Positions 1-37,784 of a stretch of 64,000 nt of DNA are shown here, piece after piece. The DNA is from Candidatus Omnitrophota bacterium (GTDB lineage Bacteria > Omnitrophota > Gorgyraeia > VGKH01): assembly GCA_016867135.1 (NCBI GenBank), contig VGKH01000002.1, forward strand, positions 6,312 through 70,311, in the 5' to 3' direction. Both the position numbers and the translations under genes were made by a program. The notes under the pieces were generated by a model, which searched no databases, had not been told where the DNA came from, and saw only the letters and a list, made by a program, of their open reading frames with translations. How positions within the stretch are numbered: position 1 is the first letter of the stretch; each line of letters opens with the position of its first letter.

Positions 1-485
1 TCTTAAGTGCGTCTAAACATGTCTCTGAAGCCATAATTTCCGTGGCTAGCCAGCACCACGAATGCGTCAACGGCAAGGGGTATCCTAAAAGATTAAAGGG
101 GCAAGAGATTAATGAGTGCGCAAAGATAGTGGCTGCAGCGGACTATTACGAGGCGCTTATGCATCCTCGCTCGCATAGGGAAAGGCTAAATCCCTATGAA
201 GCATTAAGGGTGTTAATAGAGAATAAAGAACGCTTTGATTACCGTGTTTTGAAGGTTTTAATCAAACAGATGGGCGTATATCCTATCGGAAGCCTGGTCC
301 AACTTAGTTCAGGGGAAATTGGTATCGTGGTAAAAACTAATAGCCAGTCCGCTTTAAGGCCCATAGTGAAGATTTTCTTTGATGCCCAAGGTAAAAGAGT
401 CGAGCAAGAAAAGAATATCGATTTAATAAAGTCTCCCACCATAGTTATTAAAAAACCAATCCAAGAAAAAGACCTAAATTTGTAA
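1..485 (+). CDS. HD-GYP domain protein, C-terminal part (5' end outside window; frame is open to position 3)
   Basis: HHE...GKGYP motif (HD-GYP signature) near start; ORF continues upstream without a stop. Confidence 0.7.
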   Translation, partial: LSASKHVSEAIISVASQHHECVNGKGYPKRLKGQEINECAKIVAAADYYEALMHPRSHRERLNPYEALRVLIENKERFDYRVLKVLIKQMGVYPIGSLVQLSSGEIGIVVKTNSQSALRPIVKIFFDAQGKRVEQEKNIDLIKSPTIVIKKPIQEKDLNL

Positions 486-503
486 AAATCGAGATTTATT
501 AAC

Positions 504-532
504 TTGACAGTCAGAATAAAATAACTTATTAT
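504..532 (+). promoter_or_regulatory. sigma70-like promoter TTGACA-N17-TATTAT upstream of peptidase/rSAM operon
   Basis: TTGACA 504-509, 17-nt spacer, TATTAT 527-532, 37 nt before the 569 start. Confidence 0.4.
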
Positions 533-568
533 AAGAAAAGAAGATAGGATATTTTAGTAATTTATCCG

Positions 569-1072
569 ATGGATAGCGTTGAGTTGATAAAACAGGCCGT
601 AGCTACTAAAGGCAAGGCCAATCTCTCCTTTAGCGGAAAAAGCATGCACCCAACCTTAAAAGATGCGATGGTCGTTACAATATCCCGCTTTTTGCCGGAA
701 TCCATAAGAGTTTCTGATATCATAGCCTACCAACAAAATAACCAGATAGTTGCCCACAGAGTCATAAAAATAATCAAAAATAATGGAGAAATTTCATTTA
801 TAACCAAGGGTGACAACCAGCCTTTTGGAGGAGTTAGCTTTGTCGGGCAAAAAGACTGCCTCGGAAAGATAAAGAATGCTTTTACTTCCAGTTTTTGCGA
901 AAAGAATATTTTAAATGAAAATTTATTATACAGGATGTCATACGTTTTAATAGGCAGGTTGTATTTATTTTATAGAGGCTTTATACGGCGCTACCTTCCT
1001 GAATTTTTAAGGATTATTATTCGGGGATTTGTCGGCAATGTTTATTTTTGTCTTCAAAAGTTATCAGCTTGA
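569..1072 (+). CDS. signal-peptidase-I-like (S26/S24 superfamily) serine peptidase, no N-terminal TM segment
   Basis: SGKSMHPTL (box B, Ser nucleophile), HRVIKI (box D-like with Lys), KGDNQPFGG (box E GDN); hydrophilic N-terminus. Confidence 0.55.
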   Translation: MDSVELIKQAVATKGKANLSFSGKSMHPTLKDAMVVTISRFLPESIRVSDIIAYQQNNQIVAHRVIKIIKNNGEISFITKGDNQPFGGVSFVGQKDCLGKIKNAFTSSFCEKNILNENLLYRMSYVLIGRLYLFYRGFIRRYLPEFLRIIIRGFVGNVYFCLQKLSA

Positions 1073-1082
1073 GAGGTAATTC

Positions 1083-3608
1083 ATGGTAACCCAAGTCATG
1101 CAGGAACAAAAAACGACACACTCTACGCTTAGTACGGTATATTTATATTTTTCCCAATATTGTAATTTAAGATGCCGTCACTGCTGGATAGACCCTAAGT
1201 TTGCCAAAGATAAGGCGCCTAAAAATGATGATATAGACATAAAGTCAATTATTTCTGCTTTAGAAGAATGCCGCCAGTTAGGGATGAATGCGGTTAAAGT
1301 GACCGGCGGCGAGCCTTTTCTCAGGGAAGATGTATTTGAACTTTTAGATTATTGTAAAAGTAAGAAAATACATTTAAGTTTTGAGACCAATGGCACTTTA
1401 ATTAAAGATGCCCATGCCCGCGCCTTGAAAGATGCCCGGGTGGGCTTGGTTGCTGTTTCTCTCGACGGCCCCAACGCCAAGATACATCAATTGCTAAGGG
1501 GCGTGGAAGATTCTTTTGACCAGGCAGTAGAAGGAATAAAGTCGCTCAAAGAATATGGTATCCATGTTCAAGTAATTATTTCGCTTTGGCGAAACAACAA
1601 AGATTATATCAAAGATACCATAGACTTATCCCGTTTGTTGGGCGTTAATTCGGTAAAGATAAATATTATTAGCAGTATTGCCAGAGCAGGTAAGCTTATG
1701 CAGGATAGCGAGATCTTAAGTGTTGAAGAAGTCATTGATTTTTATCAGGCATTAACTGGTCAACTGAGTAAAGAAACGCCGTTTGATGTTATTTTTGATA
1801 TTCCTCCGGCTTTTCGCTTCAAAGAAAATATCCAACAAGTAGATTCATGTTCTTGCGGTATCCACGGCATATTGGGCATATTGGGAGATGGAAAAATTTC
1901 CATTTGTGGGATAGGAAGTAGCCTGGATGCGCTTGTTTTAGGTAAAGTCGGACAGGATAGTATAAAGGACATCTGGAACAATCATCCAATCCTGGAGGAA
2001 ATCAGAGATAAAGTTCCTTATAAGTTAGAAGGAATTTGTGGTAAATGCAGTAAAAGATACTCTTGTTTGGGAAAATGTAGGGCTGAGGCTTATTATAATA
2101 GCAAAACATTTGTCTCCCCATTTTCATTTTGCCAACAGGCATACGAGCAAGGACTGTTCCCTGATTCTGCCATCAAGGAAGATTTAAAGACTAATAGATA
2201 CATAGCAAGAAATAATTGCGTAATTTCTTACCAAGATAACGGCGTAATTACAACCTGTCTTAGAAAGGGCCAGGATTATATCAAATTAGAAGGTTTTGAT
2301 GTTTGGCTTTGGGATCGATTAGGGAAAGTTGAGAAACTTTCTATTGCAGAAGTTGAATCTGAAGCCAGAAAATCTGGGATTTCTAAAGAAGGCGATAATG
2401 TTGAAAGAAAAATCGAAGACTTAATAAGATCTAATGTTGTTTCTTGTGTAGAAGAAACTATGGTTTGCAATCAAGATTTGGCGATCGACAGCAAGAAATT
2501 AAATAAGTATATGGCTATGCGCGATGCCTTGGTCAGGGAATTAAGCAGCGCCAAGAATTTCGGCAAAAAAGAGGATTTAAGCAATTTTCATCAAAACGCA
2601 GTTGAGACTATCGACGGGCATTTTGAAACCAAAGAAGTGACAGCTTCTCATTTGTTGCGTGAAAACAATCCGGCGTTGGGCGGATTAAATTACGGAGCCA
2701 AGCTTTTTGAGAAGGTCGAAAGCCTAAAGACAATAGAGAAAAACGCCAGAATTTTAGATGTGGGTTCGGGATTAGGGTTTACTTCCCGATCATTTTTACA
2801 ATCTCTGAAAGAGAAAAATCCCGATGTAGCAGCCAGCATAAGTTATATACTTTGCGATTTAACCTTTAAATTCTTGAAAAACCAAAAGAATCTCACTTCG
2901 GGATATCCTACAAGATTTATCCAGGCAAACGCCGAAGGCCCGCCGTTTAATAACAACAGTTTCGATATAATTCTTGCCAATGAAAACATCGCCGATTTTA
3001 CTTCGGTCAAGCTCAACAAGAAAGATGTTCTGGATTTCTTAGTTGGCAAGATTAAGCAAGAACATGTAGAAGACGCTTCAACAAGAAAGGCGCTAGAGTG
3101 GATAAAATCATCCTCAATTGACGTAAGCGACGCCCTTCCAGAATTCATATTTAATTTAGGGGCATTCGAGTTTATGAAGCAGATTAATCGGCTGCTAAAG
3201 GCTGGCGGCTTGGCTTTTGTTTGCGAATACGGAATCTTGCGGGGTTATCCCACCGCAGTGTATCTGCCGAATCACACCGAATATACCATACAATTTTCCC
3301 AGCTTATAAAATGCATAAAATCTTTAGGTATGGAGGTTGAGGTTCGTTCTCTTTTGGATTTTTTTGATTTTAATAAAGAAGAAGAGGTTGTCGACGAATG
3401 TTCCCTGAATTTTGTCTACGGAATTATGAAAAAAAACAATATCAATTTGCCGTATTTAGCCTATACTAAAGAAATGCTGGAAGAAAAAATAAACGGGAAT
3501 TTATTGTCTAATTTCAAGAATCTGAAATTTCTGAAGATCAGAGAAAAAATGGCTTGCATGAATATGGATACATTTTATGTTTTGTTAATTAGAAAAAAAG
3601 GAGGTTGA
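1083..3608 (+). CDS. radical SAM/SPASM-domain enzyme fused to a C-terminal class I SAM-dependent methyltransferase domain (841 aa)
   Basis: CNLRCRHC (CxxxCxxC) near N-terminus; Cys-rich SPASM-like region CSCG...CGKCSKRYSCLGKCRAEAY around aa 250-330; ILDVGSGLGFTS methyltransferase motif I around aa 560. Confidence 0.8.
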   Translation: MVTQVMQEQKTTHSTLSTVYLYFSQYCNLRCRHCWIDPKFAKDKAPKNDDIDIKSIISALEECRQLGMNAVKVTGGEPFLREDVFELLDYCKSKKIHLSFETNGTLIKDAHARALKDARVGLVAVSLDGPNAKIHQLLRGVEDSFDQAVEGIKSLKEYGIHVQVIISLWRNNKDYIKDTIDLSRLLGVNSVKINIISSIARAGKLMQDSEILSVEEVIDFYQALTGQLSKETPFDVIFDIPPAFRFKENIQQVDSCSCGIHGILGILGDGKISICGIGSSLDALVLGKVGQDSIKDIWNNHPILEEIRDKVPYKLEGICGKCSKRYSCLGKCRAEAYYNSKTFVSPFSFCQQAYEQGLFPDSAIKEDLKTNRYIARNNCVISYQDNGVITTCLRKGQDYIKLEGFDVWLWDRLGKVEKLSIAEVESEARKSGISKEGDNVERKIEDLIRSNVVSCVEETMVCNQDLAIDSKKLNKYMAMRDALVRELSSAKNFGKKEDLSNFHQNAVETIDGHFETKEVTASHLLRENNPALGGLNYGAKLFEKVESLKTIEKNARILDVGSGLGFTSRSFLQSLKEKNPDVAASISYILCDLTFKFLKNQKNLTSGYPTRFIQANAEGPPFNNNSFDIILANENIADFTSVKLNKKDVLDFLVGKIKQEHVEDASTRKALEWIKSSSIDVSDALPEFIFNLGAFEFMKQINRLLKAGGLAFVCEYGILRGYPTAVYLPNHTEYTIQFSQLIKCIKSLGMEVEVRSLLDFFDFNKEEEVVDECSLNFVYGIMKKNNINLPYLAYTKEMLEEKINGNLLSNFKNLKFLKIREKMACMNMDTFYVLLIRKKGG

Positions 3609-3609
3609 G

Positions 3610-3948
3610 TTGGGCAAAATAGGATCAGAAGGAAAGATTAAAAGAAAATATACCGAACCCTTGATTTTTGATATCGGCGGTCCTAGTTTGAACGTAGTGG
3701 GAGCTAGCGCTGTGTTATGTGCAGCTGGCTCTGGAGGTACCGCAAGATGTGGTTGCGGCGCAAGCGGTACTTATTCTCTATGCGGAACCGGGAGTAAAGT
3801 TGCCACATCTTGTGCAACCGGAGGTATATTCAACTCAAATAATAACTGCGGTGCAGGCAGCTCGGCTTCAAGATGTTGTAGCACTGGCTCTAGTGCTGGT
3901 ATCACCTGTTCTATTGGCAGCGGCGTTGGGGGGGTCACAGAGGTGTAA
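3610..3948 (+). CDS. candidate RiPP precursor peptide; TTG start 5 nt after AAAGGAGG; leader with ...LIFDIGG motif; 9-Cys Gly/Ser/Thr/Ala-rich core
   Basis: Strong SD 3598-3604; low-complexity core CAAGSGGTARCGCGASGTYSLCGTGSKVATSCATGG...CGAGSSASRCCSTGSSAGITCSIGSGVGG; sits between two rSAM/SPASM genes; codon-repetitive GC-rich DNA unlike surroundings. Confidence 0.65.
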   Translation: MGKIGSEGKIKRKYTEPLIFDIGGPSLNVVGASAVLCAAGSGGTARCGCGASGTYSLCGTGSKVATSCATGGIFNSNNNCGAGSSASRCCSTGSSAGITCSIGSGVGGVTEV

Positions 3949-4029
3949 GTTTAAAAAATAGATATTAATTTTTATTTGGTACATAATAGCCAATTAATTT
4001 CTAAATAATATAAATGGAATAAAAGAAAT

Positions 4030-5100
4030 ATGTATTCTGCCCCGCTTAATGTTTGTTTGCATATAACCAGTCGATGTAATTTGAGCTGTAAACACTGCCT
4101 TAACCGGGACCAGCCAGATTCCGAGCCTGATTTAACTACCGAAGAACTTATCAGCGTTATCGACCAGCTGGGCGAAGCAAGAGTTTTTCAGATAAGCATA
4201 TTCGGAGGCGAACCTTTAACCCATCCTGATTTTACTGTCGTGGTTGAACATCTCAATAAATATCCCTTTACACTTTCTTTAAATACCAATGCCACTTTAA
4301 TCGACCGCTCTATGGCTAAATGGCTAAAAAAACATAAAATAAGAGATGCTGTAGTTAGCTTTGATGGCTCTTGTCCTGAGATAATGGATAAAACCAGGGG
4401 CGAGGGTGTTTTTGCTAAAAATATCAAAGGCATAGAGGCGCTTTTGTCCGAAGGTATTTATGTTTTGCTTTCTGCCACTTTAACTAAAATAAATTATAAA
4501 GATGCAAGAGAAATGGTTTTGTTGGGCAAGAGATTAAAAGCCAATAAAATTCGTTTTAATCATGTATTTTTTGGTGGCAACGCCGCGTGTTTTATCAAAG
4601 AGGTTTATCTTTCCCCTGAACAGGAAAGAGAAGCTATAGAAGCGGTAGTCTCGGCAAATAAAGAATTTCCTGGCTTTATCGTTCAGGATAGCACCTATCT
4701 CAACCAGAAGGATAAATTAGAAGAAATGAAAGATTTCGAACCCGCTACAGATAAAATCACTGTTGCACCTTGCGGCGCCGCTTACCTTAAATGCGCCATA
4801 AGAGCAGATGGTTGGGTTATTCCTTGCGAGTTACTATGGGATGCTAAATGCGGCAATCTAAAGAATCAGAGTTTGACCGATATTTGGCAGAATTCCGAGA
4901 CTATGAATGAATTCAGAAGGCCGCTGGAATTAGATTTAAATGAAATACCTGAGTGCAAAGGCTGTAAATACCAATATATATGTTTTATCGGACACCGTTG
5001 TAACCCTTACTATTTTCCCGGCGGGGTTAAGGACCGTTCGGTTTATTGTTTGCTAGAGGGTAAAAAAGAGATGAGGAAGGTGGCTGATGTCGTTAAATAA
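4030..5100 (+). CDS. radical SAM/SPASM-domain peptide-modifying enzyme
   Basis: CNLSCKHC motif at N-terminus; C-terminal Cys cluster APCGAAYLKC...PCELLWDAKCGNL...CKGCKYQYICFIGHRCNPY typical of SPASM twitch/auxiliary clusters. Confidence 0.85.
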   Translation: MYSAPLNVCLHITSRCNLSCKHCLNRDQPDSEPDLTTEELISVIDQLGEARVFQISIFGGEPLTHPDFTVVVEHLNKYPFTLSLNTNATLIDRSMAKWLKKHKIRDAVVSFDGSCPEIMDKTRGEGVFAKNIKGIEALLSEGIYVLLSATLTKINYKDAREMVLLGKRLKANKIRFNHVFFGGNAACFIKEVYLSPEQEREAIEAVVSANKEFPGFIVQDSTYLNQKDKLEEMKDFEPATDKITVAPCGAAYLKCAIRADGWVIPCELLWDAKCGNLKNQSLTDIWQNSETMNEFRRPLELDLNEIPECKGCKYQYICFIGHRCNPYYFPGGVKDRSVYCLLEGKKEMRKVADVVK

Positions 5101-5356
5101 GAATCTTAAGGCGAACTCAAAGATAGTATTCCGAGAAGAAACAGATGATGCGCTTTTATTCGATCCTGATAGCGGAAATATAAAAGTTATCAATGAGACC
5201 GGAAAATTCATTTGGGCCAATTTAGACGGCAAAAACGATGAAGATTCCCTGGTAAAAAAGATTATGGATAAATTCGATATTTCCGACGAGCAAAAAGCCA
5301 GGGAAGATTTAGGTAAGTTCTTGGAAGATTTAAAAATACAGAAATTCTTGGAGTAA
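5087..5356 (+). CDS. PqqD-family protein (RiPP recognition element-like)
   Basis: 89 aa; DALLFDPDSGNIKVINETGKFIWANLDG pattern matches PqqD fold consensus (x-L-L-x-x-x-sG-x-x-x-LN-x-t-a-x-x-iW). Confidence 0.7.
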   Translation: MSLNKNLKANSKIVFREETDDALLFDPDSGNIKVINETGKFIWANLDGKNDEDSLVKKIMDKFDISDEQKAREDLGKFLEDLKIQKFLE

Positions 5357-5357
5357 G

Positions 5358-5621
5358 ATGAAGATAAAACAAGTAGAAGGCCTCCTTGTGGCTTCTTTTC
5401 CGAATAGTTCGGTAATATTTAATTGCAATAATCGCCGTTCTTATATATTGAACTATACAGCGTCTTTAATTTGGGATTTCTGTAAAAAGCCAAGAGATAT
5501 AGCTGAAATCGCCTGCTTCATTCATCGAAAATATGATTTAGTTTTATCAAAAGCACTCAGAGATGCCAGAAGTTTTGTTGCGCGACTTAAGAAAAGACAG
5601 CTTCTGTCTGTTGTCAGGTAG
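5358..5621 (+). CDS. second PqqD-like small protein
   Basis: 87 aa; SYILNYTASLIWDFCKKPRDIAEI resembles PqqD helix region; tandem with previous. Confidence 0.5.
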   Translation: MKIKQVEGLLVASFPNSSVIFNCNNRRSYILNYTASLIWDFCKKPRDIAEIACFIHRKYDLVLSKALRDARSFVARLKKRQLLSVVR

Positions 5622-5638
5622 CATAGAGAGAGACAACG

Positions 5639-6583
5639 GTGGGTTTATGTGCTTTTTTCATGAAGACCATAACTTTCAATATAGCCAATATTCCGTTATC
5701 GGTAAAATGTAGAGACGACGAAGCTCTACCGTCTTTATTCCAGCAATTCACAAGCACTGCCAAGAGACCAACTGATCGAACATGGCATTTAGAATCAGTA
5801 GGTATTAAGAAAAACAGATCCAATAAATTCCCTTCCTGTATTGCAAAGAAAATAAGCCCAATAGCAGAAAGATTTGGTTCCATCCGTAACTTTAGAGTTG
5901 ATTTAGAGAAGAAACAAAAGATTTTGTCTAGTGTTTATTCACAATTTCCGGAAGCGCTATCCGATATTTCCTTTTATTTTGACGAGCCAGTTGGAATAAA
6001 TACTAAAAAAAGAAAGATTAGGCATTTTTATACGAGCTCAACAGGATTTGATGAGATAAGGAAATTTGATTCCCGGCTGACTATTTTTGCCTATTCCCAA
6101 ATTTTAGCATCTTTAGAGGGGTTTCTTTTGCATTGCGCTTGCGTAGTAAAGAATAAAGACGCCTTTTTATTCTTTGCTAAATCAGGAGGAGGAAAATCCA
6201 CGGTTGCTAAGTTATCACGGCAATATACTGTTTTAGGAGACGATATAATTGCAGTTAGGAAAATAAACCATGATTTCGTAGCTTTTTCAACACCGTGGAA
6301 ACAAAAAAAGACTGCGAATAGACGAACCTTGTTTTCTGCTAGGATCAAAGCCGTTTTTTTCTTAAGAAAATCAAATAGAGTTTTATTTAAACCGTTAAAA
6401 TCGGATAAGGCATTAGTTAGATTTCTATCGCGATACATCCATTTCTTTTTGTATACTGAAAGGCCATTGGCAGATAAAATCTTTTTTACTGCAGCTGATT
6501 TCTTTAAGACAATCCCGGCTTACGAGATGCATTTTAGAAAATATGCAGATTTTTGGCCAAAGTTGGAGAAAATAATAAAATGA
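5639..6583 (+). CDS. HPr kinase-related P-loop protein (HprK C-terminal-domain-like)
   Basis: LLHCACVVKNKDAFLFFAKSGGGKSTVAKL...VLGDDIIAV resembles HprK C-domain Walker A and downstream Asp. Confidence 0.5.
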   Translation: MGLCAFFMKTITFNIANIPLSVKCRDDEALPSLFQQFTSTAKRPTDRTWHLESVGIKKNRSNKFPSCIAKKISPIAERFGSIRNFRVDLEKKQKILSSVYSQFPEALSDISFYFDEPVGINTKKRKIRHFYTSSTGFDEIRKFDSRLTIFAYSQILASLEGFLLHCACVVKNKDAFLFFAKSGGGKSTVAKLSRQYTVLGDDIIAVRKINHDFVAFSTPWKQKKTANRRTLFSARIKAVFFLRKSNRVLFKPLKSDKALVRFLSRYIHFFLYTERPLADKIFFTAADFFKTIPAYEMHFRKYADFWPKLEKIIK

Positions 6584-8340
6584 ACAAGCTTAACTTTAAG
6601 ATTATTTTGTCTTTTCTTAAATACTTAAAGCCATATTGGAAAAAAGAAGCTGTGGTTTGGCTTTTGAGTTTTGGAATAGCCGGGCTGTCTTTAGCTTATC
6701 CTTACATTGCCAAATTAGTTGTGGACAAGGCGTATCAGGAGAGAAACTGGACTTTATTTATTGAACTTTTGGTTACGGGAGGACTTGTATTTATAATTTC
6801 AAGTTTATTCCAGGTCGTGTCAAATTTCTTAAGAGAATACATAGATTTAAAGGTCCGCTTCGACCTGCAAAAAATTATATTCCAAAAAATAGAAAATTTG
6901 CCCTATAGCTTCTTCCAATTAAGGCCCACGGGAGAGTATATATATAAATCGCTTATTGAGAGCTCTCAGGTCTCCGACTTTATTACTTCTGTCGCCCCGG
7001 AGTTGTTTTATATTATCCCCAAATTCTTGTTGATATTCACCATTCTTTTCTTCATAAACTGGAAAATGGCTGTTTTTATTTTTGTTGTGGCGCCTGTTTT
7101 AAATATCCCGACATTTTTTATTGCGCGCAAGGTTAGAAAACAATCAGAGAAGTCGCTTAATAGTTCCCAGGACATATTGGAGACAGCCCGAGAATCATTT
7201 TCTAATATGCAATTGGTCAAGGTCTTTGGAAAAGAAAAGAAAGAAAACAGGCGTTTTGTGAAACAAATGATAAAAAATATTCGCTTAAGCATAATCAGCT
7301 TCAGATTGAACGCCTTCAGTTCTTTTCTAGAAAGCTGGGCTAATAAGTTGTTGCTTGGCCTGATAACTCTTTACGGCGGATACAACATTATCAAAGGCCA
7401 GATAAGTCTGGGCAGCTTTACCGCAATAATGCTTTATATAAATCAGCTGCTTGATTTGGAGAATTTGTTCGTTGGTTTTTTTGTGCACCGTCTTAATACG
7501 GGGCTTGTTTCCGTCCGGAGGCTTTCAGAGATTATGAATTCTTGGCCGCAAGAACTTGAAGATAAAAACACAAGGGCTATTTTACTGTCATCAGGAGAAA
7601 TAGAGTTTAGAGATGTCTCTTTCGGATATTATCCCAAGACGCCTATTTTAGAGCATATAAGTTTACATATAAAATCTGGTTCGTCAATTGGCCTGGTAGG
7701 AAACTCCGGCCGCGGCAAGACGACGCTCGTTAGTCTTATTGTAAAACTTTATCAAATTTCTGAAGGTGAAATCCTTGTCGATGGGCAGGATATTAACTTG
7801 ATAAAGAATAGCTCGCTTCGCCAGCAAATAGGAGTGGCATTGCAAAAGCCAATCTTGTGGAATGATACCATTCGAAACAATATAACATATAGTATTTTAA
7901 GCGCAACTGATGAGGAAGTTCTGCAGGCAGCAATGATTTCCTGCGCTTACGATTTTATCAAAGAGCTACCGCGAGGCTATAACACTATTATGGGAGAAGG
8001 GGCGGTGCGCCTTTCCGAAGGGCAGAAACAGAGGATTTCTTTAGCAAGGGCAATCATAAAAAAGCCAAAGATTTTAATTATAGATGAAGGCATGTCTTCG
8101 CTTGATTCTCAGACCGAGGACAGTATCATTGATAACATAAAAAAGGAGCTGAAAAACACAACCATGATTGTTATTTCCCACCGTTTATCCACAATAAAGA
8201 AGGTGGATAGGGTTTACTTTTTAGAAAAGAAAGATAAAATGAGTTTTGGCCATCACGAAGAGTTGCTACATCAAAATCCTCAATACAAAGAACTATTCGC
8301 TAGTCAGATAGAAGAAGAGCATATCAAAATAAAATCATAA
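6553..8340 (+). CDS. ABC transporter, fused permease/ATPase (type I exporter, peptide-export-like); no N-terminal C39 peptidase domain
   Basis: 6 predicted TM helices then Walker A GNSGRGKTT, signature LSEGQKQRISLARAI, Walker B ILIIDEGMSSLD, H-loop ISHRL. Confidence 0.85.
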   Translation: MAKVGENNKMNKLNFKIILSFLKYLKPYWKKEAVVWLLSFGIAGLSLAYPYIAKLVVDKAYQERNWTLFIELLVTGGLVFIISSLFQVVSNFLREYIDLKVRFDLQKIIFQKIENLPYSFFQLRPTGEYIYKSLIESSQVSDFITSVAPELFYIIPKFLLIFTILFFINWKMAVFIFVVAPVLNIPTFFIARKVRKQSEKSLNSSQDILETARESFSNMQLVKVFGKEKKENRRFVKQMIKNIRLSIISFRLNAFSSFLESWANKLLLGLITLYGGYNIIKGQISLGSFTAIMLYINQLLDLENLFVGFFVHRLNTGLVSVRRLSEIMNSWPQELEDKNTRAILLSSGEIEFRDVSFGYYPKTPILEHISLHIKSGSSIGLVGNSGRGKTTLVSLIVKLYQISEGEILVDGQDINLIKNSSLRQQIGVALQKPILWNDTIRNNITYSILSATDEEVLQAAMISCAYDFIKELPRGYNTIMGEGAVRLSEGQKQRISLARAIIKKPKILIIDEGMSSLDSQTEDSIIDNIKKELKNTTMIVISHRLSTIKKVDRVYFLEKKDKMSFGHHEELLHQNPQYKELFASQIEEEHIKIKS

Positions 8341-9545
8341 TGGTCAAGATATCTCAGTCAAAAGAGAATAAAGCTTGGTTTAGCTCCCAAACGATTAATT
8401 TTTTAACCTGTTGTAGCCGCACAATTATAGACGAAGAAGTTACAGGGAAAATAAAATCTTTAATAGCGCCTGATTTAGATTGGCCAGCCATAATTATAAA
8501 AGCCAAAAATCAAGGGGTGGCACAATTTTTATATTTCCACCTGGCAAAATTAGAAGAAGTTTGGTCGATTGTGCCCGATGAATTAAAAAAAGAACTAAGA
8601 GAATTTTATCATAGAATTTTAGCTAATAATTGGTTGATTCAAAACGAGCTTAAGAAAATAATCCCGTTATTAGATCGTGTTTGCATCGAAGTTATTGTTT
8701 TAAAAGGAGCAAGCCTTCTTGGGTCGGTATATAAAAATATAGCCTTTCGTCCGATGATCGATGTGGATTTATTGGTTAGAAAACAAGATCTGCCCAGGGC
8801 AAAAACTATTCTACATGATATAGGATATCGAAAGCCAGATTTTCTAGATCAACAGAGTTTGGAGAAATTCGGAGGAGAAATTCATCTTTATAAAAATGGA
8901 GGAGTTTTTCTAGATATTCATACGACTTTATCCCAGTATGAGCGTTTTGAGGATATTCTAAAAATCGATTCCGACGAAGAACTTTGGAATAAAACAAGAA
9001 GATTTAATAATGGTGAGGGCGAAATTAGGATGCTTGGGCCCGACCATCTGCTTATGCATTTATGTATGCATCAGGCATTGGCTCATTGGTTTGCTGGATT
9101 ATTTCGTTTCTGCGATCTTCGTGAAACCATTTTGGCTTATAAAGAAGAATTGGATTTTGAATATATAATAAAAAAAGCAAGAATATACAAGATAAATAAA
9201 ATTCTTTATTTTGCCCTTTCTTCTGTGCAGGAACTTTTTGGTCCGATATTGCCTCAAGATTTCTTAGCTAATCTGCAGTATAAACATAGGCTAACTATTA
9301 GTATAGGCTGTTTTCTTTTTAGAAAAAAGATCTTATCTTTACCTGACAAAGAAGTAGCATTTCGGAAATCTATAAATCAGTTGTTTTTGATGGATAATTT
9401 TTCAGACTTGCCTCAAATTATATTTAAAGGGTTTTTTCCTTCCGATGATTGGCTCAGGTATAGATATGGAGTCAGAAGTAGGATAAAATTATTTTTTTAC
9501 CGTTTAATCCACCCCTTCATTACAGCATTTAATATTCTTTCCTAA
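8340..9545 (+). CDS. uncharacterised nucleotidyltransferase-family protein (PF14907-like)
   Basis: FRPMIDVDLLVRKQD motif typical of this nucleotidyltransferase family; size ~400 aa. Confidence 0.5.
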   Translation: MVKISQSKENKAWFSSQTINFLTCCSRTIIDEEVTGKIKSLIAPDLDWPAIIIKAKNQGVAQFLYFHLAKLEEVWSIVPDELKKELREFYHRILANNWLIQNELKKIIPLLDRVCIEVIVLKGASLLGSVYKNIAFRPMIDVDLLVRKQDLPRAKTILHDIGYRKPDFLDQQSLEKFGGEIHLYKNGGVFLDIHTTLSQYERFEDILKIDSDEELWNKTRRFNNGEGEIRMLGPDHLLMHLCMHQALAHWFAGLFRFCDLRETILAYKEELDFEYIIKKARIYKINKILYFALSSVQELFGPILPQDFLANLQYKHRLTISIGCFLFRKKILSLPDKEVAFRKSINQLFLMDNFSDLPQIIFKGFFPSDDWLRYRYGVRSRIKLFFYRLIHPFITAFNILS

Positions 9546-9576
9546 CTCCTTCTTTGGCAAAAGTTTAAGTCTTTTC

Positions 9577-9605
9577 TTGACTTTAGGGTAATTATTAGAT
9601 ATATT
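9577..9605 (+). promoter_or_regulatory. sigma70-like promoter TTGACT-N17-TATATT ahead of EPS operon
   Basis: TTGACT 9577-9582, spacer 17, TATATT 9600-9605. Confidence 0.35.
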
Positions 9606-9634
9606 AAAAGGAAAGTATATATAATTTATTAATT

Positions 9635-10699
9635 ATGCATAAATTTATTAAGATTTATAGTAGAAGGTTTTTTCTGGTCATTTTTATTTCCATTTTTATT
9701 AGTTCTTGTTCAGCCGCAAAAAGACAACAGCAATTCTCCGCGGATTTAAGAAAAGCCGCATTAAAACTCGCCCAACAGGATAGTTTTCCCAAGAATGATT
9801 ATTATACAATCGACCAGGACGATATACTTGATATAACAGTATGGAAGTCTTTAGGCTCAAAAGAAGGAGAGGCGGAAAAGGAGTATTTTATTAACGATGG
9901 CGATCAATTGGAAATTTCTGTATGGCAATGGCCAGACCTTTTAAGAAACGTTGTCGTTCGTCCCGACGGGAAAATTTCTTTTCCTTTAGTAGGAGATATC
10001 CAGGCAAAGGGGAAAACTTTAACCGCATTGGATGATGAAATTACCGAGAAACTTTCTTCTTTTATTAAATCTCCCGAGGTTTCAGTAATGATAACAGCAT
10101 TTGGGGCAGAGCAAGAAGGTTTCTTAAAGCCGGAGATATCTTTTGTTAAAGTTAATGAGTTGAGCGCAGAGCAGGCAGTGGCTCCCGACGGTAATATTTA
10201 TTTGCCTTTAATCGGAGCGGTTCAGGCTTCCGGCTTAACGTTAAATCAATTAGGTTTGAAGATAAAGGATAGCGTCGCTCAATTTGTCCAGAATCCGGAA
10301 GTCTCGGTTACTATCAAACAATTCGGTGGTAGAAAACTTATTGTCTTGGGGGAAGTTACCGATCCGGGAGTATATCTTTTTACCGGGAAAGCGACTGTTT
10401 TGGAAGCCATCGGTTGGGCAGGGGGCTACACCAGAAACGCCGTTTTAAAAAACGTGCTTGTTATAAGGGGGAATTTATCTAAACCGGAAGTTTTTAATCT
10501 GAATTTGCGCAGTGTGCTGGATAAAAAAGATATGAGCCAGAACCTAGCAATTCAGGCAAGAGATGTAATATATGTTCCCAGGACTGTTGTTGCTGAAGTA
10601 AGCCATATTTTATCACAATTGCTTGGCCCTTTGACAAGTTCATCGAGCGCAGTTACTGCTATAAAGACTATCAGGACTGGGCCTAGCCCCAAGAAATAA
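9635..10699 (+). CDS. polysaccharide export outer-membrane lipoprotein (Wza/EpsA family; Poly_export + SLBB)
   Basis: Lipobox ISSC after signal peptide; repeated PDG..ISFPLVGDIQAKG / PDGNIYLPLIGAVQASG SLBB motifs. Confidence 0.8.
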   Translation: MHKFIKIYSRRFFLVIFISIFISSCSAAKRQQQFSADLRKAALKLAQQDSFPKNDYYTIDQDDILDITVWKSLGSKEGEAEKEYFINDGDQLEISVWQWPDLLRNVVVRPDGKISFPLVGDIQAKGKTLTALDDEITEKLSSFIKSPEVSVMITAFGAEQEGFLKPEISFVKVNELSAEQAVAPDGNIYLPLIGAVQASGLTLNQLGLKIKDSVAQFVQNPEVSVTIKQFGGRKLIVLGEVTDPGVYLFTGKATVLEAIGWAGGYTRNAVLKNVLVIRGNLSKPEVFNLNLRSVLDKKDMSQNLAIQARDVIYVPRTVVAEVSHILSQLLGPLTSSSSAVTAIKTIRTGPSPKK

Positions 10700-10700
10700 A

Positions 10701-12620
10701 ATGCCACAATACGAATTAAATATTCAAGATTATTTAAGAATCCTCCGGAAGAGAAAATGGATAATTTTTCTTACCATAATTTCTACTTTCGTTGGAACCA
10801 TAACTTACAACAATCTTCAAACTCCTGTCTATAGCGCTAGCGTCTCAATCAAGATAGAAGTGCGTCAAACCGCGATAGCCGCGCTTACTGAGACTATTTT
10901 AGGATACGGCTATGATGTATTGGCCACCGAGCAGAAAGTTATAACCGGCCGTCCCGTCGTGGAAGAGGCGGCAAGGCGCCTGGAGCTATTCTCCAAAAAT
11001 GCCTCGCAGGACGAAATTGATTTTATAGTAAGCGATATACAGGCCGGTTTGAATTCAATCACCGACCAGATTTCTTCAATTATTTTGCTAACTGTGGAAT
11101 CCGACCAGCCGAAAAAAGCCCGGGATATCGCCAATAAAATAGCAGAAGTTTACATCGAAGAGAACCTAAAACAGAGAAGCAAAGAGGCAACCCAGGTTAG
11201 AGATTTTATTGAGAAACAACTATCTGATGTGGAGACAAGACTACACGCTTCGGAAGATGCGTTGGCAAAATTCAGGGAGCAAGAAGCGGTTACCGGAGTG
11301 GCGGTGGGTCTGGAAAACCGCCTTGGAACATTAAAGGCGCAATTATCTGATTTATTAACTAAGGCAACCGAAAAACATCCCGACGTCCAGCGCTTGGAGG
11401 AACAAATCAAAGAAGCGGAGGACGAGCTAAAGAAACTTCCTCAGGCCGAACTGGAATTCGCCAGGCTTGAGCGCGACGTCAACGTCAATGAAAAGCTTTA
11501 TACAATGTTAAGGGAGAAATTTGAGGAGGCAAGGATTTCTGAGAAAGGAATGGTTTCTCAGGCAACGGTAGTCAATCCCGCGGTAGAGCCAAGAGTCCCT
11601 ATAAAACCAAACAAAAGATTCGCCGCGGTTGTGGGAGTAGTGGTGGGAATGATGCTAGGTTTGATTCTGGCATTTGTTACTGAGAGCTTGGACACATCTA
11701 TCGGAACAATAGAAGACGTTGAGAACTTGTTAAAAGTTCCAGTGTTGGCGATAATTCCTTCCATAAAGACGGAGGTCGCCGAAGAAAAACCTTGGTGGAA
11801 GCGGGGAATTTTTCCGCAAATGCAACAGACTAAAGAGGAGGAAAGAGAGGCGGCGCTCTCTGTGCTTTTTAAACCGCTATCTCAGATTGCCGAATCATAT
11901 AGGATATTAAGGACCAATCTTAAAATATCCGATACGAAAAAAGCTTTTCTTGTAACAAGCTGTGGGCCTCAAGAGGGAAAGACAACTGTTTTAGTGGGCC
12001 TAGGCATTACCTTGGCGCAGATGGGGATAAAGACGCTTCTAATCGATTCAGACCTCAGGCGTCCGTCGGTACATAAAAAACTCGGTATCACTAAAGAATC
12101 TGGAGTAAACGAGATCGTTAATAAGTCAATAACCTGGCAAGATGCGGTTAAAGGACTGCCGGATATTTTGATGGGAGAATTAGGCTTTGACGATGCGCTT
12201 AAGAATCCCGGATTAGACAATTTGAGCATAATTACTGCCGGTGCATCTTCTAACAATCCTTCAGAGTTATTGGGTTCAAAGACTATGGAGTCATTGCTAG
12301 CTGAATTCAGAGACAATTTTGACGTAATCTTGTTTGATTCTCCTCCCAGCTTGGCAATAACCGATGCCTCTGTGCTTGCGCCTTTGCTTGATGGGGTAGT
12401 AATTGTTTATGAGATGGGCAGGACCGCAAGGGCCGCGCTGTTAAGAGCAAAGGTTCAGTTAGAATCTGTCGGCGCAAATGTCCTAGGAGTGGCGCTTAAT
12501 CATATCAAGCCAGAAAGCGAAGTAGCAACTGGTTATTATCCATATTATTATCATTATAAATACAAATATGCCGAGAAGCAAAAGGAAGAAAAAGAATCTC
12601 ACCATCAGGAGTCTACATAA
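10701..12620 (+). CDS. polysaccharide co-polymerase/BY-tyrosine autokinase (Wzc-like: chain-length determinant + P-loop kinase + C-terminal Tyr cluster)
   Basis: N-terminal TM + Wzz-like coiled region; Walker A SCGPQEGKTT; Walker B VILFDSPP; C-terminal YYPYYYHYKYKY. Confidence 0.85.
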   Translation: MPQYELNIQDYLRILRKRKWIIFLTIISTFVGTITYNNLQTPVYSASVSIKIEVRQTAIAALTETILGYGYDVLATEQKVITGRPVVEEAARRLELFSKNASQDEIDFIVSDIQAGLNSITDQISSIILLTVESDQPKKARDIANKIAEVYIEENLKQRSKEATQVRDFIEKQLSDVETRLHASEDALAKFREQEAVTGVAVGLENRLGTLKAQLSDLLTKATEKHPDVQRLEEQIKEAEDELKKLPQAELEFARLERDVNVNEKLYTMLREKFEEARISEKGMVSQATVVNPAVEPRVPIKPNKRFAAVVGVVVGMMLGLILAFVTESLDTSIGTIEDVENLLKVPVLAIIPSIKTEVAEEKPWWKRGIFPQMQQTKEEEREAALSVLFKPLSQIAESYRILRTNLKISDTKKAFLVTSCGPQEGKTTVLVGLGITLAQMGIKTLLIDSDLRRPSVHKKLGITKESGVNEIVNKSITWQDAVKGLPDILMGELGFDDALKNPGLDNLSIITAGASSNNPSELLGSKTMESLLAEFRDNFDVILFDSPPSLAITDASVLAPLLDGVVIVYEMGRTARAALLRAKVQLESVGANVLGVALNHIKPESEVATGYYPYYYHYKYKYAEKQKEEKESHHQEST

Positions 12621-12646
12621 TAGGTCGTATTTCTTGATTATTTAAT

Positions 12647-12676
12647 AAAAGGGGATGTTTGTCCCCTTTTTGTTTT
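12647..12676 (+). terminator. rho-independent terminator after wzc-like gene
   Basis: AAAAGGGGA-tgtttg-TCCCCTTTT hairpin followed by TGTTTT. Confidence 0.55.
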
Positions 12677-12680
12677 CGCT

Positions 12681-14114
12681 ATGAGCCATAACAATTTCCT
12701 GAAAGAAAAATATAATTTTCTCACTACCAATTTTGGCCAGATGGATATTAGGGCATTGGCCTTGTTGCTGGTCCTGATAGCGTTTTCGGCAATTATCGGT
12801 TTTAAGATGGCGGCGTTTCATCCGCTTGTTCCGATAGCTCTTTTGGCCGCAGTTACGCTGGGAATAGCGACTTTAGTAAATACAAATCTGGGTTTAACGA
12901 TTTTGATTTTTTCAATGCTTCTATCCCCAGAAATACCTATAGCTCAAACTGTAGAGAGGGCTGTAACTGTCAGGATTGAAGATTTCTTGATTATCGCCGT
13001 ATTTTTCGCTTGGTTTGCCAAGACTGCGGTAAGGAAAGAGTTAGGTTTATTGCGCAAAACCCCGCTTAATAAGCCTATACTTGCTTATTTGGCTGTGAGT
13101 ATTTTTTCTACCGGGCTAGGGATAATGAGCGGGAATGTTAGCGCAAAAATCGGCTTCTTTTATATCCTTAAATACATAGAATTCTTTATGATATTTTTCC
13201 TTTTTGTGAATAATCTTGAGGACAAAAAACAGATTAAGACATTTATTTTCTGTTTTCTGTTGGTTTCTTTCATAATAGGAGTTTTGACCTATGCTCAGAT
13301 TGGAAGGATTGACCGTCCCACGGCGCCTTTTGAAGGAGCGCATCCCGAGCCGAATACCCTCGGAGGTTATTTAGTATTAACTTTAGCTACGGCGCTGGGA
13401 ATCTTGTTATATTCAAGCAATACAAACGTAAAGCTAATTTTACTTGGGCTAGTGTGTTTTAATTTTTACCCGCTCTTAATGACTCTTTCTAGAAGCTCTT
13501 ATTTGGCATTTGTCCTGCTTTATTTAATCTTAGTTTTCTTCTCAAGGAAACACAGGTTGATTTTGATTAGTCTTTTGGTTTTTGCTATTTTATTTTTACC
13601 ATTTTTTATACCCGAGAGAGCTAAAGACAGGGTTCTTTATACATTTAGTTACGGTTCTCATTACACTTTTGGCGGCGGGAAGATCAGGTTGGAGAAATCT
13701 GCTGCGGCAAGAGTTGAGACTTGGCAGAGCGCCATGGATTACTTGCAGAAAAAACCATTTTTTGGTTTTGGAGTAACAGGCGTACCTTTTATGGATTCTC
13801 AGTATGCGAGACTTTTGGCAGAAATCGGAATTTTCGGGTTTTTAATATTTCTTTGGTTGATTTTCGCGATAATAAAAAGCGCATGGTATATATTTAACAA
13901 TTCAACCGATTATTTCACTCAAGGCTTGAGCCTTGGTTTTTTGGGGGGTTTTGCGGGGATGTTGCTCATGGGATTAGCGGCGAATGTTTTTGTTATTGTA
14001 AGAATTTCTGAACCATTCTGGTTTTTGTGCGCCTGTGTTATGGCCTTATTTGATATTCAACCTATGCAGGCAGCTCCGGGAATCAAAAGGATGGACCATA
14101 CAGATTCAACTTAA
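12681..14114 (+). CDS. O-antigen ligase/polymerase-like polytopic membrane protein (Wzy_C-like)
   Basis: ~11 TM helices, periplasmic loop region, position in EPS locus. Confidence 0.5.
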   Translation: MSHNNFLKEKYNFLTTNFGQMDIRALALLLVLIAFSAIIGFKMAAFHPLVPIALLAAVTLGIATLVNTNLGLTILIFSMLLSPEIPIAQTVERAVTVRIEDFLIIAVFFAWFAKTAVRKELGLLRKTPLNKPILAYLAVSIFSTGLGIMSGNVSAKIGFFYILKYIEFFMIFFLFVNNLEDKKQIKTFIFCFLLVSFIIGVLTYAQIGRIDRPTAPFEGAHPEPNTLGGYLVLTLATALGILLYSSNTNVKLILLGLVCFNFYPLLMTLSRSSYLAFVLLYLILVFFSRKHRLILISLLVFAILFLPFFIPERAKDRVLYTFSYGSHYTFGGGKIRLEKSAAARVETWQSAMDYLQKKPFFGFGVTGVPFMDSQYARLLAEIGIFGFLIFLWLIFAIIKSAWYIFNNSTDYFTQGLSLGFLGGFAGMLLMGLAANVFVIVRISEPFWFLCACVMALFDIQPMQAAPGIKRMDHTDST

Positions 14115-14137
14115 ATATTTAATTAATAAATGGAGAT

Positions 14138-15589
14138 ATGGATCTAACCAATAGAGCAATAAAAGGGACATTCATTGTCGCAGGAAGCACTTATTTTATT
14201 GATTTAATTTCATTTGTTCGCTCTATAGTCTTGGCGAGGTTGCTTGTGCCGGAATATTTCGGAATTGTCGCCTTGGCGTCATTTTTCTTCAATTTAATCA
14301 GGCAGCTTAAAGAATTTAACCTAGATTCTGCGCTCATTTATAAACCCGATGCTTCAAAAGATGATTTTTCTACCCATTTTGTATTAAAGCTGCTTTTGGC
14401 TTTGCTGACTCTTTTTGTTATAGCCGCTATCTCTCCAATTTTGACAAGATTCTACGGACCGGATATCACAAAAATAATTTTGATATTTGCCTTTTTTTCC
14501 ATATTCCAAGAGGCTGCTGCTACTCCCCGCGTAGTCCTGGAAAAAGAGCTTTTATTTTCCCGGGTGGCCGTAATTAATATCGTAAAAGAAATAATCAAGA
14601 CGATTATTCCGATTGGCATGGTTTTTCTTGGATTTGGCTTATGGAGCTTGGTGGCAATGGCTGTTTTGGATATGTCTATCCCATTTTTTTGTTTTTTAAT
14701 AACTAGGACCTGGAGGCTCTCTTTTCGGTTAAGCAAAGAAAAGGCGATATGGTTTTTGAAATATAGTTCATATATGTGGATAGCCGGCTTATGCATAACT
14801 TTAATGTATGAATTTGATGATTTTCTCGTCGGTGTTATGGCGGGGATGGTTGCATTGGGGCTGTATGTCAAAGCCTATGATTTTTCTGAGCTACCCACCC
14901 AACTTGTAACGCATATCATAAATAGAGTAAGCTTACCGTTGTATTCTAAATTAAAAGATAATAAGGCTGAGCTTTCGCGGTCATTTAACAATTTCTTGTA
15001 TTTTATATTTAGATTAGCCCTTCCTTTGGCACTGGCGCTATTCATCGTGGCGCCGGAGTTTATCTATATTTTCTTAGGAGCAAAATGGGCCGGCGCAATA
15101 TTATTGTTAAGATTGTTAATCGTTTATTCTGTTTTGCGTTCGATTCAGGATGATTGTTCGGCTTTATTTTATGGGATAGGCAAGCCGAAAATTATGACTT
15201 ATGTCGTAACTGCTCAAGCGATAATAATGGTGGTCCTGGCGCCGTTTTTCGTTTATTTCTTTAAAGTAAATGGCGCCGCGATATTCGTAGATTTAATGAC
15301 GATAATAGGTATTATATTGATCTATAAGAATGTATCAGTTTTTGTCGATGTTGAATACAAAAAGAATTTTCTTGCTCCTATAGTCAGCGCGATAATTGGC
15401 TTGCTTGCAGTATTCATTTTTCTGCAAAATGTCTATATCCCGGGATTATTTATTCGTTTAATCGTTAAATTATTTTTGTTCGGTGCGATTTATACAAGCA
15501 TTCTTATTTTGCTTTCCAAGGATGAATTGTCGCATAAATTTAAATTTGTGTTTGAGATATTAAAGCCAGGTATGTTAAATAAAAAATAA
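14138..15589 (+). CDS. polysaccharide biosynthesis protein, MOP-superfamily flippase (Wzx-like)
   Basis: ~12-14 TM helices, N-terminal polysacc_synt-like pattern. Confidence 0.55.
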   Translation: MDLTNRAIKGTFIVAGSTYFIDLISFVRSIVLARLLVPEYFGIVALASFFFNLIRQLKEFNLDSALIYKPDASKDDFSTHFVLKLLLALLTLFVIAAISPILTRFYGPDITKIILIFAFFSIFQEAAATPRVVLEKELLFSRVAVINIVKEIIKTIIPIGMVFLGFGLWSLVAMAVLDMSIPFFCFLITRTWRLSFRLSKEKAIWFLKYSSYMWIAGLCITLMYEFDDFLVGVMAGMVALGLYVKAYDFSELPTQLVTHIINRVSLPLYSKLKDNKAELSRSFNNFLYFIFRLALPLALALFIVAPEFIYIFLGAKWAGAILLLRLLIVYSVLRSIQDDCSALFYGIGKPKIMTYVVTAQAIIMVVLAPFFVYFFKVNGAAIFVDLMTIIGIILIYKNVSVFVDVEYKKNFLAPIVSAIIGLLAVFIFLQNVYIPGLFIRLIVKLFLFGAIYTSILILLSKDELSHKFKFVFEILKPGMLNKK

Positions 15590-15640
15590 GATAATTTCTC
15601 TGCATTCTTAGATCGTTTTCAAAAGAAAGGATATTTAATT

Positions 15641-20171: not shown

Positions 20172-20182
20172 TAGAGTTAGGA

Positions 20183-21610: not shown

Positions 21611-21613
21611 AAT

Positions 21614-22453: not shown

Positions 22454-22456
22454 AAT

Positions 22457-24822: not shown

Positions 24823-24842
24823 ATAATTAGCTTAAAACATAT

Positions 24843-25565: not shown

Positions 25566-25590
25566 TAAATTATTTAAGAACGGATTAAAC

Positions 25591-27447: not shown

Positions 27448-27450
27448 GAT

Positions 27451-31280: not shown

Positions 31281-31289
31281 AATCAGAAT

Positions 31290-33792: not shown

Positions 33793-33831
33793 TGAAGTAC
33801 TATGTCCTAACGGTAGCAGCATCTTTTTTAT

Positions 33832-33960
33832 GGTTCCGACGCTCCCCGATGATTCTGTCGGGATTCCGTACTGAAAACGTCGGAGCCTTCGGAGGTCGGA
33901 ACCCCGACCCAGAATGCCAATCATCCATGCTCTTACGGACGTGGCATTCTGGCGTCGGGG
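33832..33960. other. GC-rich multi-hairpin element (candidate structured ncRNA, leader or small inverted-repeat element)
   Basis: 9-bp helix 33832-33840/33895-33903 (GGTTCCGAC/GTCGGAACC); 17-bp bulged helix 33902-33918/33943-33960; repeated CCGAC/GTCGG units; UUCG-type loop. Confidence 0.3.
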
Positions 33961-34026
33961 CAAAACTCTTGAAGTTTCTATTGATAATTTCAAAGGTTAT
34001 ACTATAATCTTTTTTAAAGGATAAAA

Positions 34027-37745: not shown

Positions 37746-37784
37746 GTAAGCTTGCCATTTGAGCATTCCGAAAGATTGACTTTT

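Follow-up and report, generated by a model that had tools for sequence, protein, structure and literature searches.

Relationship to described systems

The SynChlorMet (Scm) cassette (TIGR04248-04251, PF27840) combines two PqqE-like radical S-adenosylmethionine (SAM)/SPASM proteins with one or more PqqD homologues and an ScmC-like protein, and as far as we are aware from the TIGR model description, no precursor peptide has been identified for the original cassette. We analysed a 64,000-nt stretch of DNA from Candidatus Omnitrophota bacterium (GCA_016867135.1, contig VGKH01000002.1, positions 6,312-70,311 of the forward strand; hereafter the window), in which this set of parts recurs around an open reading frame (ORF) of 841 amino acids (aa). 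Partner types of ScmC, ScmD and ScmE are all in the window (45 vs 125, 58 vs 100, and 167 vs 400 bits, score vs curated cutoff). The window differs from SynChlorMet in that its ScmF is fused to a methyltransferase carrying a putative RRE, the recognition element of peptides that are ribosomally synthesized and then modified post-translationally (RiPPs). It also adds a second PqqD protein, an S26 peptidase, an ATP-binding cassette (ABC) exporter, an NTP_transf_5 protein and a candidate precursor with CxxG repeats.

Other peptide-maturation enzymes resemble the 841-aa protein in one part or another. In SuiB, CteB, SkfB, AlbA, TigE, ChlB and PqqE with PqqD, the RRE lies N-terminal to the radical SAM domain or is a discrete protein, whereas in the window it lies C-terminal to the SPASM domain, an unusual placement, and is evolutionarily part of the methyltransferase module. 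None of SuiB, CteB, SkfB, AlbA, TigE, ChlB and PqqE has a class I methyltransferase domain, unlike the window fusion. That module shows about 17% identity to MidA/NDUFAF7 (Methyltransf_28, COG1565, DUF185; complex I assembly), from which it differs in its N-terminal RRE, its helical extension and its setting in a peptide-maturation cluster. CypM, LahSB and CgnL are likewise class I RiPP methyltransferases and are found among the structural or sequence neighbours of the module, but they are less similar to it than MidA-family structures are, and they stand alone, with no radical SAM enzyme joined to them. We know of no RRE in these three proteins.

A further likeness is to the accessory set of the lasso peptides paeninodin and pseudomycoidin, which comprises the PqqD-type RRE protein B1, an HprK-type kinase and a PsmN-type nucleotidyltransferase. 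With lasso systems the window shares a YxxP leader motif and a PqqD protein (PqqD 2) whose nearest model is the lasso PqqD. The window cluster closes with the same kinds of protein as the pseudomycoidin set contains: one with a P-loop, an exporter of the ABC type and a nucleotidyltransferase annotated as uncharacterised. In contrast to lasso systems, however, the window has no lasso cyclase or B2 protease, and the Cys-repeat core of about 75 aa is unlike a lasso core. Pseudomycoidin itself is phosphorylated, then glycosylated and exported, with a P-loop kinase, a PsmN-type nucleotidyltransferase and an ABC exporter (PMC6993621). Our literature search on SynChlorMet/Scm proteins, MidA-type methyltransferases in RiPPs and Omnitrophota RiPPs found nothing relevant, and no RiPP link of the MidA-like methyltransferase family was found in it.

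The fusion protein and its modules

The 841-aa ORF is, in our assessment, probably a genuine tri-modular peptide-maturation enzyme of an Scm-like RiPP cassette in Omnitrophota. An earlier reading of the letters alone (the original prediction) had proposed a radical SAM/SPASM enzyme fused to a class I methyltransferase at 1083-3608; the ORF is present at these positions, and its domain matches are far beyond chance. It starts with ATG, just 5' of which lies GAGAGG, and it is composed as follows.

1083..3608, + strand: fusion ORF (radical SAM/SPASM, RRE, MidA-like class I methyltransferase), 841 aa, uninterrupted
1128..2171, + strand: radical SAM/SPASM module, ScmF-like, aa 16-363
2193..2453, + strand: internal RRE/PqqD-like domain, as predicted from its fold, aa 371-457
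2490..3596, + strand: methyltransferase module proper, aa ~470-838

The proposed N-terminal radical SAM domain with its SPASM cluster was confirmed by Pfam, NCBIfam and structural matches. The CxxxCxxC motif is formed by C27-C31-C34 (CNLRCRHC), with GGEP at 75 and ETNG at 101, and it is kept in all six fused proteins described below. The SPASM cysteines are C256/C258, C275, C319-C322-C328-C332 (CGKCSKRYSCLGKC) and C350, and the full seven-Cys SPASM pattern, including CxxCx5Cx3C, is present. Pfam Radical_SAM (PF04055) matched residues 22-182 (E=7.7e-28; 98.2 bits vs cutoff 29.5) and Pfam SPASM (PF13186) scored 28.3 bits vs 21.5. The NCBIfam model ScmF (TIGR04251) aligned to residues 16-363 over its positions 3-352 of 353 with 338.8 bits (E=4e-101), which is under the curated 400-bit cutoff of this equivalog model. 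By sequence, the domain is a close ScmF relative, not an equivalog by the NCBI threshold, and the enzyme would work in the manner of a SPASM maturase guided by a leader. A test for radical SAM methylases of classes A-D gave no B12-binding or HemN match in the ORF, and since its other SAM-dependent domain has the common class I fold, the protein is not a methylase of these classes.

For the C-terminal module, motif I (DVGSGLG, residues 559-565), the strand-2 acidic residue, the fold and the hidden Markov model (HMM) scores all identify a class I (Rossmann-fold) methyltransferase. Pfam Methyltransf_11 scored 31.4 bits vs cutoff 21.2, and Methyltransf_28 matched residues 544-718 with 24.4 bits vs 23.3. 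This score above the gathering threshold goes together with the closest fold, as MidA/NDUFAF7 structures outranked TmtA, phosphoethanolamine N-methyltransferases, CypM and others, and Foldseek concurred. The module has a helical N-extension (H503, E518, T520, S522, R526), D592, NENIADF at 633, EFIFNLG, E715 and H731/E733. In a 23-sequence alignment the named residues of the extension, D592, E715, H731 and E733 are invariant, as are Y588, N633, E634, D638, F690 and N691. We conclude that the module is a class I methyltransferase nearest to MidA/NDUFAF7 in both sequence and structure, in agreement with the methyltransferase originally proposed. Structural statements here and below are based on AlphaFold models for which the input alignments were shallow (11-23 sequences).

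An exhaustive profile search gave 291 representatives of the MidA-like family at E<=1e-30, and nine of ten members scanned matched Pfam Methyltransf_28, with scores of 40-48 bits for six. An unannotated N-terminal region of about 230 aa is common among members of 545-620 aa. Individual members (P0075, P0133, P0081) include an HD_4 fusion of 801 aa, a GNAT acetyltransferase fusion of 736 aa and a protein of about 620 aa that has a weak PqqD match N-terminal to the methyltransferase.

The region between the two catalytic domains had been suggested to be a linker of about 150 aa that could bind the precursor. AlphaFold predicted residues 371-457 as strands followed by three helices (predicted local distance difference test, pLDDT, 81-92), and when the domain was modelled alone it reached a pLDDT of 83.9 and a predicted template modelling score (pTM) of 0.74. 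The model superposes on TbiB1 and TfuB1, and its matches include MadB, MibB, TigE and TbtB, with MccB, ThcOx, TglI, PqqD and LynD at lower ranks. Pfam PqqD (PF05402) did not match any of 11 domain sequences, even at E<=10, and alignment with the cluster's own PqqD proteins by hhalign was borderline (E=3.7e-4, probability 36%, colinear over positions 1-89); a profile match of this region to a PqqD protein in the PDB had E=0.09. Because Pfam is silent and hhalign only borderline, the assignment rests on the fold, and on these grounds we accept residues 371-457 as a predicted RRE. The invariant YxxP motif of the precursor leaders (see below) matches putative leader binding by this domain.

The other part of the suggestion, that the linker is a separate third element, did not hold. 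In relatives, a methyltransferase of 464-496 aa stands alone, and its N-terminal part is made up of the RRE and a helical segment that is conserved (HFE..E.TVSH..RE); its Met1 aligns at about residue 371 of the window protein. A search with the C-terminal 475 aa returned a single fused relative along with several proteins of 464-477 aa that stand alone, and since the latter cover 95-99% of the query, the linker belongs to the methyltransferase protein. There is also a natural fusion variant of 736 aa (P0001; L001 9275-11485, on a contig that ends just after the gene) that lacks exactly the RRE domain of about 105 aa, so that its SPASM domain is joined straight to the helical extension of the methyltransferase.

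The fused architecture recurs in other Omnitrophota. A protein identical to that of the window (P0014) is found on nine contigs, including independent Logan and JGI samples, and the profile search returned, besides P0014, four further full-length fusions of 840-860 aa (P0017-P0020). Together with P0001 these are the fused relatives in Omnitrophota (P0001, P0017, P0018, P0019, P0020). The six fused proteins are 59-65% identical and align continuously across the junction, with every cluster-binding Cys and every methyltransferase motif kept. Gene order in loci L007 and L010 is that of the window, from the HD_5 gene through Wzy. In the more distantly related L005/L006 and L014, the latter a GTDB species representative, the ScmF orthologue (40-42% identical to the window) and the RRE-methyltransferase (43-47%) are separate, non-adjacent genes in clusters that otherwise have the same parts as the window cassette. 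The fusion is therefore conserved in five further proteins and split in L005 and L014, and the window has no sign of an indel.

That the two halves are separate genes in some relatives could be taken to mean that the 841-aa ORF is an artefact, namely a frameshift, mis-assembly or read-through that joined two neighbours. This explanation is contradicted by the identical protein on contigs from independent samples, by the five other fusions with their continuous alignment over the junction, and by the conserved N-termini and motifs of both domains. Since the split genes are non-adjacent, a simple indel could not have made the fusion and a frameshift artefact is excluded; we consider the chance that the ORF is an artefact to be negligible. 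The comparison instead shows a lineage-specific fusion of two cassette genes, one ScmF-like and one encoding an RRE-methyltransferase. Origin by simple fusion of adjacent genes was considered and rejected. The radical SAM gene that lies 22 bp upstream of a stand-alone methyltransferase in L012 is not an ScmF orthologue (24% over 126 aa), and where the split is genuine, as in L005 and L014, other genes lie between the two.

The architecture is rare, with six fused protein clusters found. A pattern scan of 185,579 GTDB species representatives gave 159 relatives of the methyltransferase, of which the best 80 were kept; among these 80 there was no close match of the grade of a fused protein, and the top two (46-47%) were both Omnitrophota. 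About 78 of the best 80 belong to Nitrospirales/Nitrospirota (L015-L092; one is labelled Nitrospinota). These Nitrospirota-type relatives show 29-34% identity, and the protein clusters that they match have lengths of 465-496 aa.

The candidate precursor and the surrounding cassette

The fusion gene ends with TGA at 3606-3608, and one base further a small ORF begins with TTG at 3610.

3601..3605, + strand: GGAGG, Shine-Dalgarno sequence of the precursor ORF as read from the sequence, within the fusion gene's last codons
3610..3948, + strand: candidate precursor, Cys/Gly/Ser-rich, 112 aa, TTG start, leader carrying KRKYTEPLIFDIGG

The originally noted tight placement of the fusion gene next to this ORF is kept in relatives, with a gap of 2 nt in L007 and an overlap of 14 nt in L010. 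The leader carries a YxxP motif at residues 14-17, and the core of about 75 aa has about seven CxxG repeats at intervals of 9-12 residues. Homologues were found after or within related cassettes in L007, L010, L005, L014, L008 and on the P0173 contig. In an alignment of six precursors the only invariant columns are M1, Y14, P17 and six pairs of Cys and Gly(+3), namely C47/G50, C58/G61, C68/G71, C80/G83, C90/G93 and C100/G103, a pattern that points to Cys-centred chemistry repeated seven to ten times. Successive Cys lie 9-13 residues apart. No Pfam or NCBIfam family model matches the 112-aa ORF, and a profile search returned only three database proteins, all unnamed, so that the family is either small or rarely gene-called. 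In lasso leaders, YxxP has been characterised as the sequence that the RRE recognises (PMC12710340). The conserved homologues, the invariant columns, the YxxP motif and the lasso-like PqqD protein together make the ORF a credible precursor.

Two to three positions before the first Cys of the precursor (window 3700..3720, residues ~31-37) there is a small residue, usually Ala, and the same site is seen in L005, L007 and L014 (…GASA|VLC, …LTA|WGC, …FMA|VC, …TMA|TC). It resembles the -3/-1 site of type I signal peptidases and fits the co-encoded S26 peptidase. Alternatively, FD(I/L)GG further upstream could be a double-glycine site; the ABC transporter has no C39 peptidase domain. In L010, a second short ORF of 47 aa (MGSSVGINYQCGVGNSATRACCYGESASTGCVTGHSALVLCNTGSGF; 7175-7318) directly follows the precursor and has CxxG repeats with no leader; either a duplicate in decay or a second core that lacks a leader could explain it.

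The other genes of the cassette are co-directional with the fusion ORF.

569..1072, + strand: S26-type (archaeal/SipW-like) signal peptidase I homologue, 167 aa (NCBIfam sigpep_I_arch, 63.8 bits vs cutoff 51.85)
4030..5100, + strand: second radical SAM/SPASM enzyme, ScmE-like, 356 aa (TIGR04250, 167 bits vs 400; Pfam Radical_SAM and SPASM)
5087..5356, + strand: discrete PqqD-family RRE protein 1, ScmD-like, 89 aa (Pfam PqqD, E=3.7e-14; TIGR04248, 58 bits vs 100)
5358..5621, + strand: discrete PqqD-family RRE protein 2, 87 aa (Pfam PqqD, E=1.4e-10; top NCBIfam match lasso_PqqD_Bac)
5639..6583, + strand: ScmC-like P-loop protein (GKSGGGKST), 314 aa (TIGR04249, 45 bits vs cutoff 125)
6553..8340, + strand: ABC exporter, fused permease and ATPase, 595 aa (NCBIfam MsbA/HlyB-type; no C39 peptidase domain)
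8340..9545, + strand: NTP_transf_5 "uncharacterised nucleotidyltransferase", 401 aa (Pfam PF14907, E=2e-47)

A gene of 140-173 aa occupies the position of the S26 peptidase in L001, L007 and L010, and a homologue lies inside the L013 cluster; we infer that the S26 protein is the candidate leader peptidase of the cassette. The ScmE-like orthologues of L007, L008 and L010 are 65-73% identical. Orthologues of the ScmC-like protein in relatives carry Pfam ScmC (PF27840), and the protein itself has weak P-loop similarity to HprK_rel_A and PEPCK (E about 0.01). We rejected its assignment as an HprK-type kinase, as this similarity is confined to the P-loop and there was no PDB sequence match; the likeness is one of analogy only. 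The ABC exporter gene is kept in all related loci, and the NTP_transf_5 gene ends every related cassette.

Directly after the cassette lies a polysaccharide locus (9635..~34000) that begins with Wza (9635..10699), Wzc (10701..12620), Wzy (12681..14114) and Wzx (14138..15589) and contains Poly_export, GNVR/tyrosine-kinase, Wzy_C, flippases, GT4 glycosyltransferases, methyltransferases and asparagine synthase. The order NTP_transf_5, Poly_export, Wzz/GNVR is found again in L002, L007 and L010, and a Poly_export gene is likewise located downstream in L013, L005 and L014, at a distance of a few genes in the latter two. This recurring adjacency suggests a functional link of the peptide to capsule or exopolysaccharide (EPS). 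Upstream of the cassette, all fused-type loci (compared in the window, L001, L007, L008 and L010) have an HD_5/HD-domain protein (window 42..485) and then a SurA-like peptidyl-prolyl isomerase and a radical SAM gene, which indicates that the cassette sits at a fixed chromosomal position in the clade and not on a mobile element. Between the HD_5 gene (ending at 485) and the S26 gene (from 569) is the top sigma-70-like match (504..532; TTGACA-17-TATTAT, 11/12), a plausible cassette promoter; the scan for promoters and terminators was not enriched over shuffles in the region overall.

The P0020 locus (L008/L009) is a variant in which an additional gene, for a UbiE-like methyltransferase, lies upstream of the fusion, and which also encodes a 451-aa fusion of PqqD with radical SAM/SPASM and a protein of 337-361 aa that resembles PRMT (PRMT5_C/PRMT_C). 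Two genes of AbiEii toxin type are inserted between its cassette genes, and L008 also encodes a 92-aa CxxG-repeat peptide (14771-15049). L005 carries a PrmA-like methyltransferase. Genes of N-methyltransferase type thus recur in these clusters. Over the window as a whole (1..64000), nearly all long ORFs are on the + strand and almost all 2-kb bins have a positive GC skew, which makes the cumulative skew climb steadily, consistent with a single leading-strand stretch.

Proposed pathway and alternative readings

In the pathway that we propose, the internal RRE, the two discrete PqqD proteins or both would bind the YxxP leader of the 112-aa precursor, after which the radical SAM/SPASM domain and the ScmE-like enzyme would modify the roughly seven CxxG repeats of the core, most likely by forming thioether crosslinks from Cys or by some other radical reaction centred on Cys. 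The methyltransferase domain would then methylate the same tethered peptide, and through the fusion both leader-dependent activities would stay in a single polypeptide. By analogy with the HprK kinase/PsmN pair of pseudomycoidin, the ScmC-like P-loop protein and the NTP_transf_5 protein may add further tailoring, before the S26 peptidase would take off the leader and the ABC transporter would export the product. We infer that the fusion protein may both crosslink and methylate, with thioether formation as the leading candidate for the radical modification. As NDUFAF7 is a protein arginine methyltransferase (PMC3829151), N-methylation of the peptide, for example at Arg, Lys or the N-terminus, would be the best guess for the second activity.

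Several observations weigh against this interpretation. All four Scm HMMs scored under their curated cutoffs, the Scm cassette has no characterised product, and no paper on the cassette was found in the literature. Among characterised enzymes, those that the radical SAM domain comes nearest to by HMM belong to heme pathways (AhbD, NirJ2) and are not sactisynthases. The precursor cores share no invariant Arg or Lys that would mark the methyl acceptor, and the lack of the RRE in P0001 means that this domain is dispensable at least there. The one Nitrospirae-type context read (L011, P0021) has no radical SAM, PqqD, ScmC or Scm neighbours, so that the RRE-methyltransferase family is not exclusively RiPP-linked. 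Finally, inter-domain packing in the full model is unreliable (pTM 0.56) and the Fe-S loops are of low confidence.

The best HMM matches of the radical SAM domain after ScmF are AhbD, NirJ2 and WgkB (a Trp-Lys crosslinker family), and models of thioether synthases scored far under their cutoffs, both for the fusion ORF (AlbA 71 vs 850, StsB 88 vs 625) and for the ScmE-like ORF (PapB 69 vs 340). In structure comparison the fold resembles CteB and SkfB, and the structural neighbours span several chemistries, including SuiB (C-C), anSME (oxidation) and PqqE (C-C). The domain could thus make no thioethers, and instead catalyse another radical reaction on the peptide (epimerisation, crosslinking of C-C or C-O type, oxidation of Cys or chemistry at its beta-carbon), or even act, as its nearest characterised HMM relatives do, on a tetrapyrrole-like substrate that is not a peptide. 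We regard this as a real possibility, if somewhat short of an even chance. Cys and Gly(+3) are the sole invariant core positions over six precursors, which speaks for Cys-centred chemistry, and the two PqqD proteins, the RRE and the leader motif argue for a peptide substrate.

With respect to the methyltransferase, the fusion could be real while this domain acts elsewhere, on a protein, the adjacent EPS polysaccharide or a small molecule, or serves as a silent SAM-binding or scaffold domain. This would fit the L011 homologue outside a RiPP context, the constant adjacency of the cassette to a Wza/Wzc/Wzy locus with methyltransferases of its own, the lack of an invariant basic residue in the cores, and the folded protein that is the substrate of MidA/NDUFAF7 (PMC3829151). 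We nevertheless consider it improbable, since the module carries an RRE-fold domain and all Omnitrophota loci examined have it either fused to peptide-maturase genes or in a cluster with them, and the invariance of motif I, the motif II Asp (D592) and about 20 other residues over 23 sequences argues for an active enzyme. Still less probable, and in our view very unlikely, is a coupled reaction in the manner of RlmN/Cfr with their methyl-Cys intermediate, in which the class I domain would S-methylate Cys or methylate another atom and the radical SAM domain would activate this methyl group, giving a methylene-bridged or C-methylated product, so that the fusion would be mechanistically required. 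L005 and L014 encode the two activities as separate proteins kilobases apart, there is no methyltransferase on the visible part of the P0173 contig, and the chemistry has no precedent, with MidA kinship favouring N-methylation.

Returning to successive radical modification and methylation of one tethered peptide, its fullest version would be a new class of ribosomal peptide. Two radical SAM/SPASM enzymes would act, one repeat after another, on a core of about 75 residues with 7-10 CxxG repeats, and a MidA-type enzyme guided by an RRE, from a family not known before to be linked to RiPPs, would methylate it. The peptide would possibly receive phospho- or glyco-tailoring, then be exported and possibly be tied to capsule or EPS, and in this lineage the fusion would crosslink and methylate processively. 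Taken with all of its parts this is a tentative proposal, and one that we would on balance expect to fail in some respect.

No concept is overturned by these results, as fusions of tailoring enzymes, RREs on diverse catalytic domains and RiPP clusters with several radical SAM enzymes are established themes. The fusion itself is a modest evolutionary event, and its value is in joining a methyltransferase, Scm-type radical SAM enzymes and a defined precursor in one testable system. In this sense it is a natural "Rosetta stone" through which a methyltransferase family so far anonymous is tied both to a radical SAM cassette that is itself uncharacterised and to a specific substrate peptide. It connects this cassette with the MidA-like family of 291 representative clusters, which often bears an N-terminal RRE, and it supplies a candidate precursor for an Scm-type cassette, with a YxxP leader followed by CxxG repeats. 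Altogether, three or four genes give an experimentally tractable entry to the peptide chemistry of Omnitrophota, a phylum with almost no cultured members.

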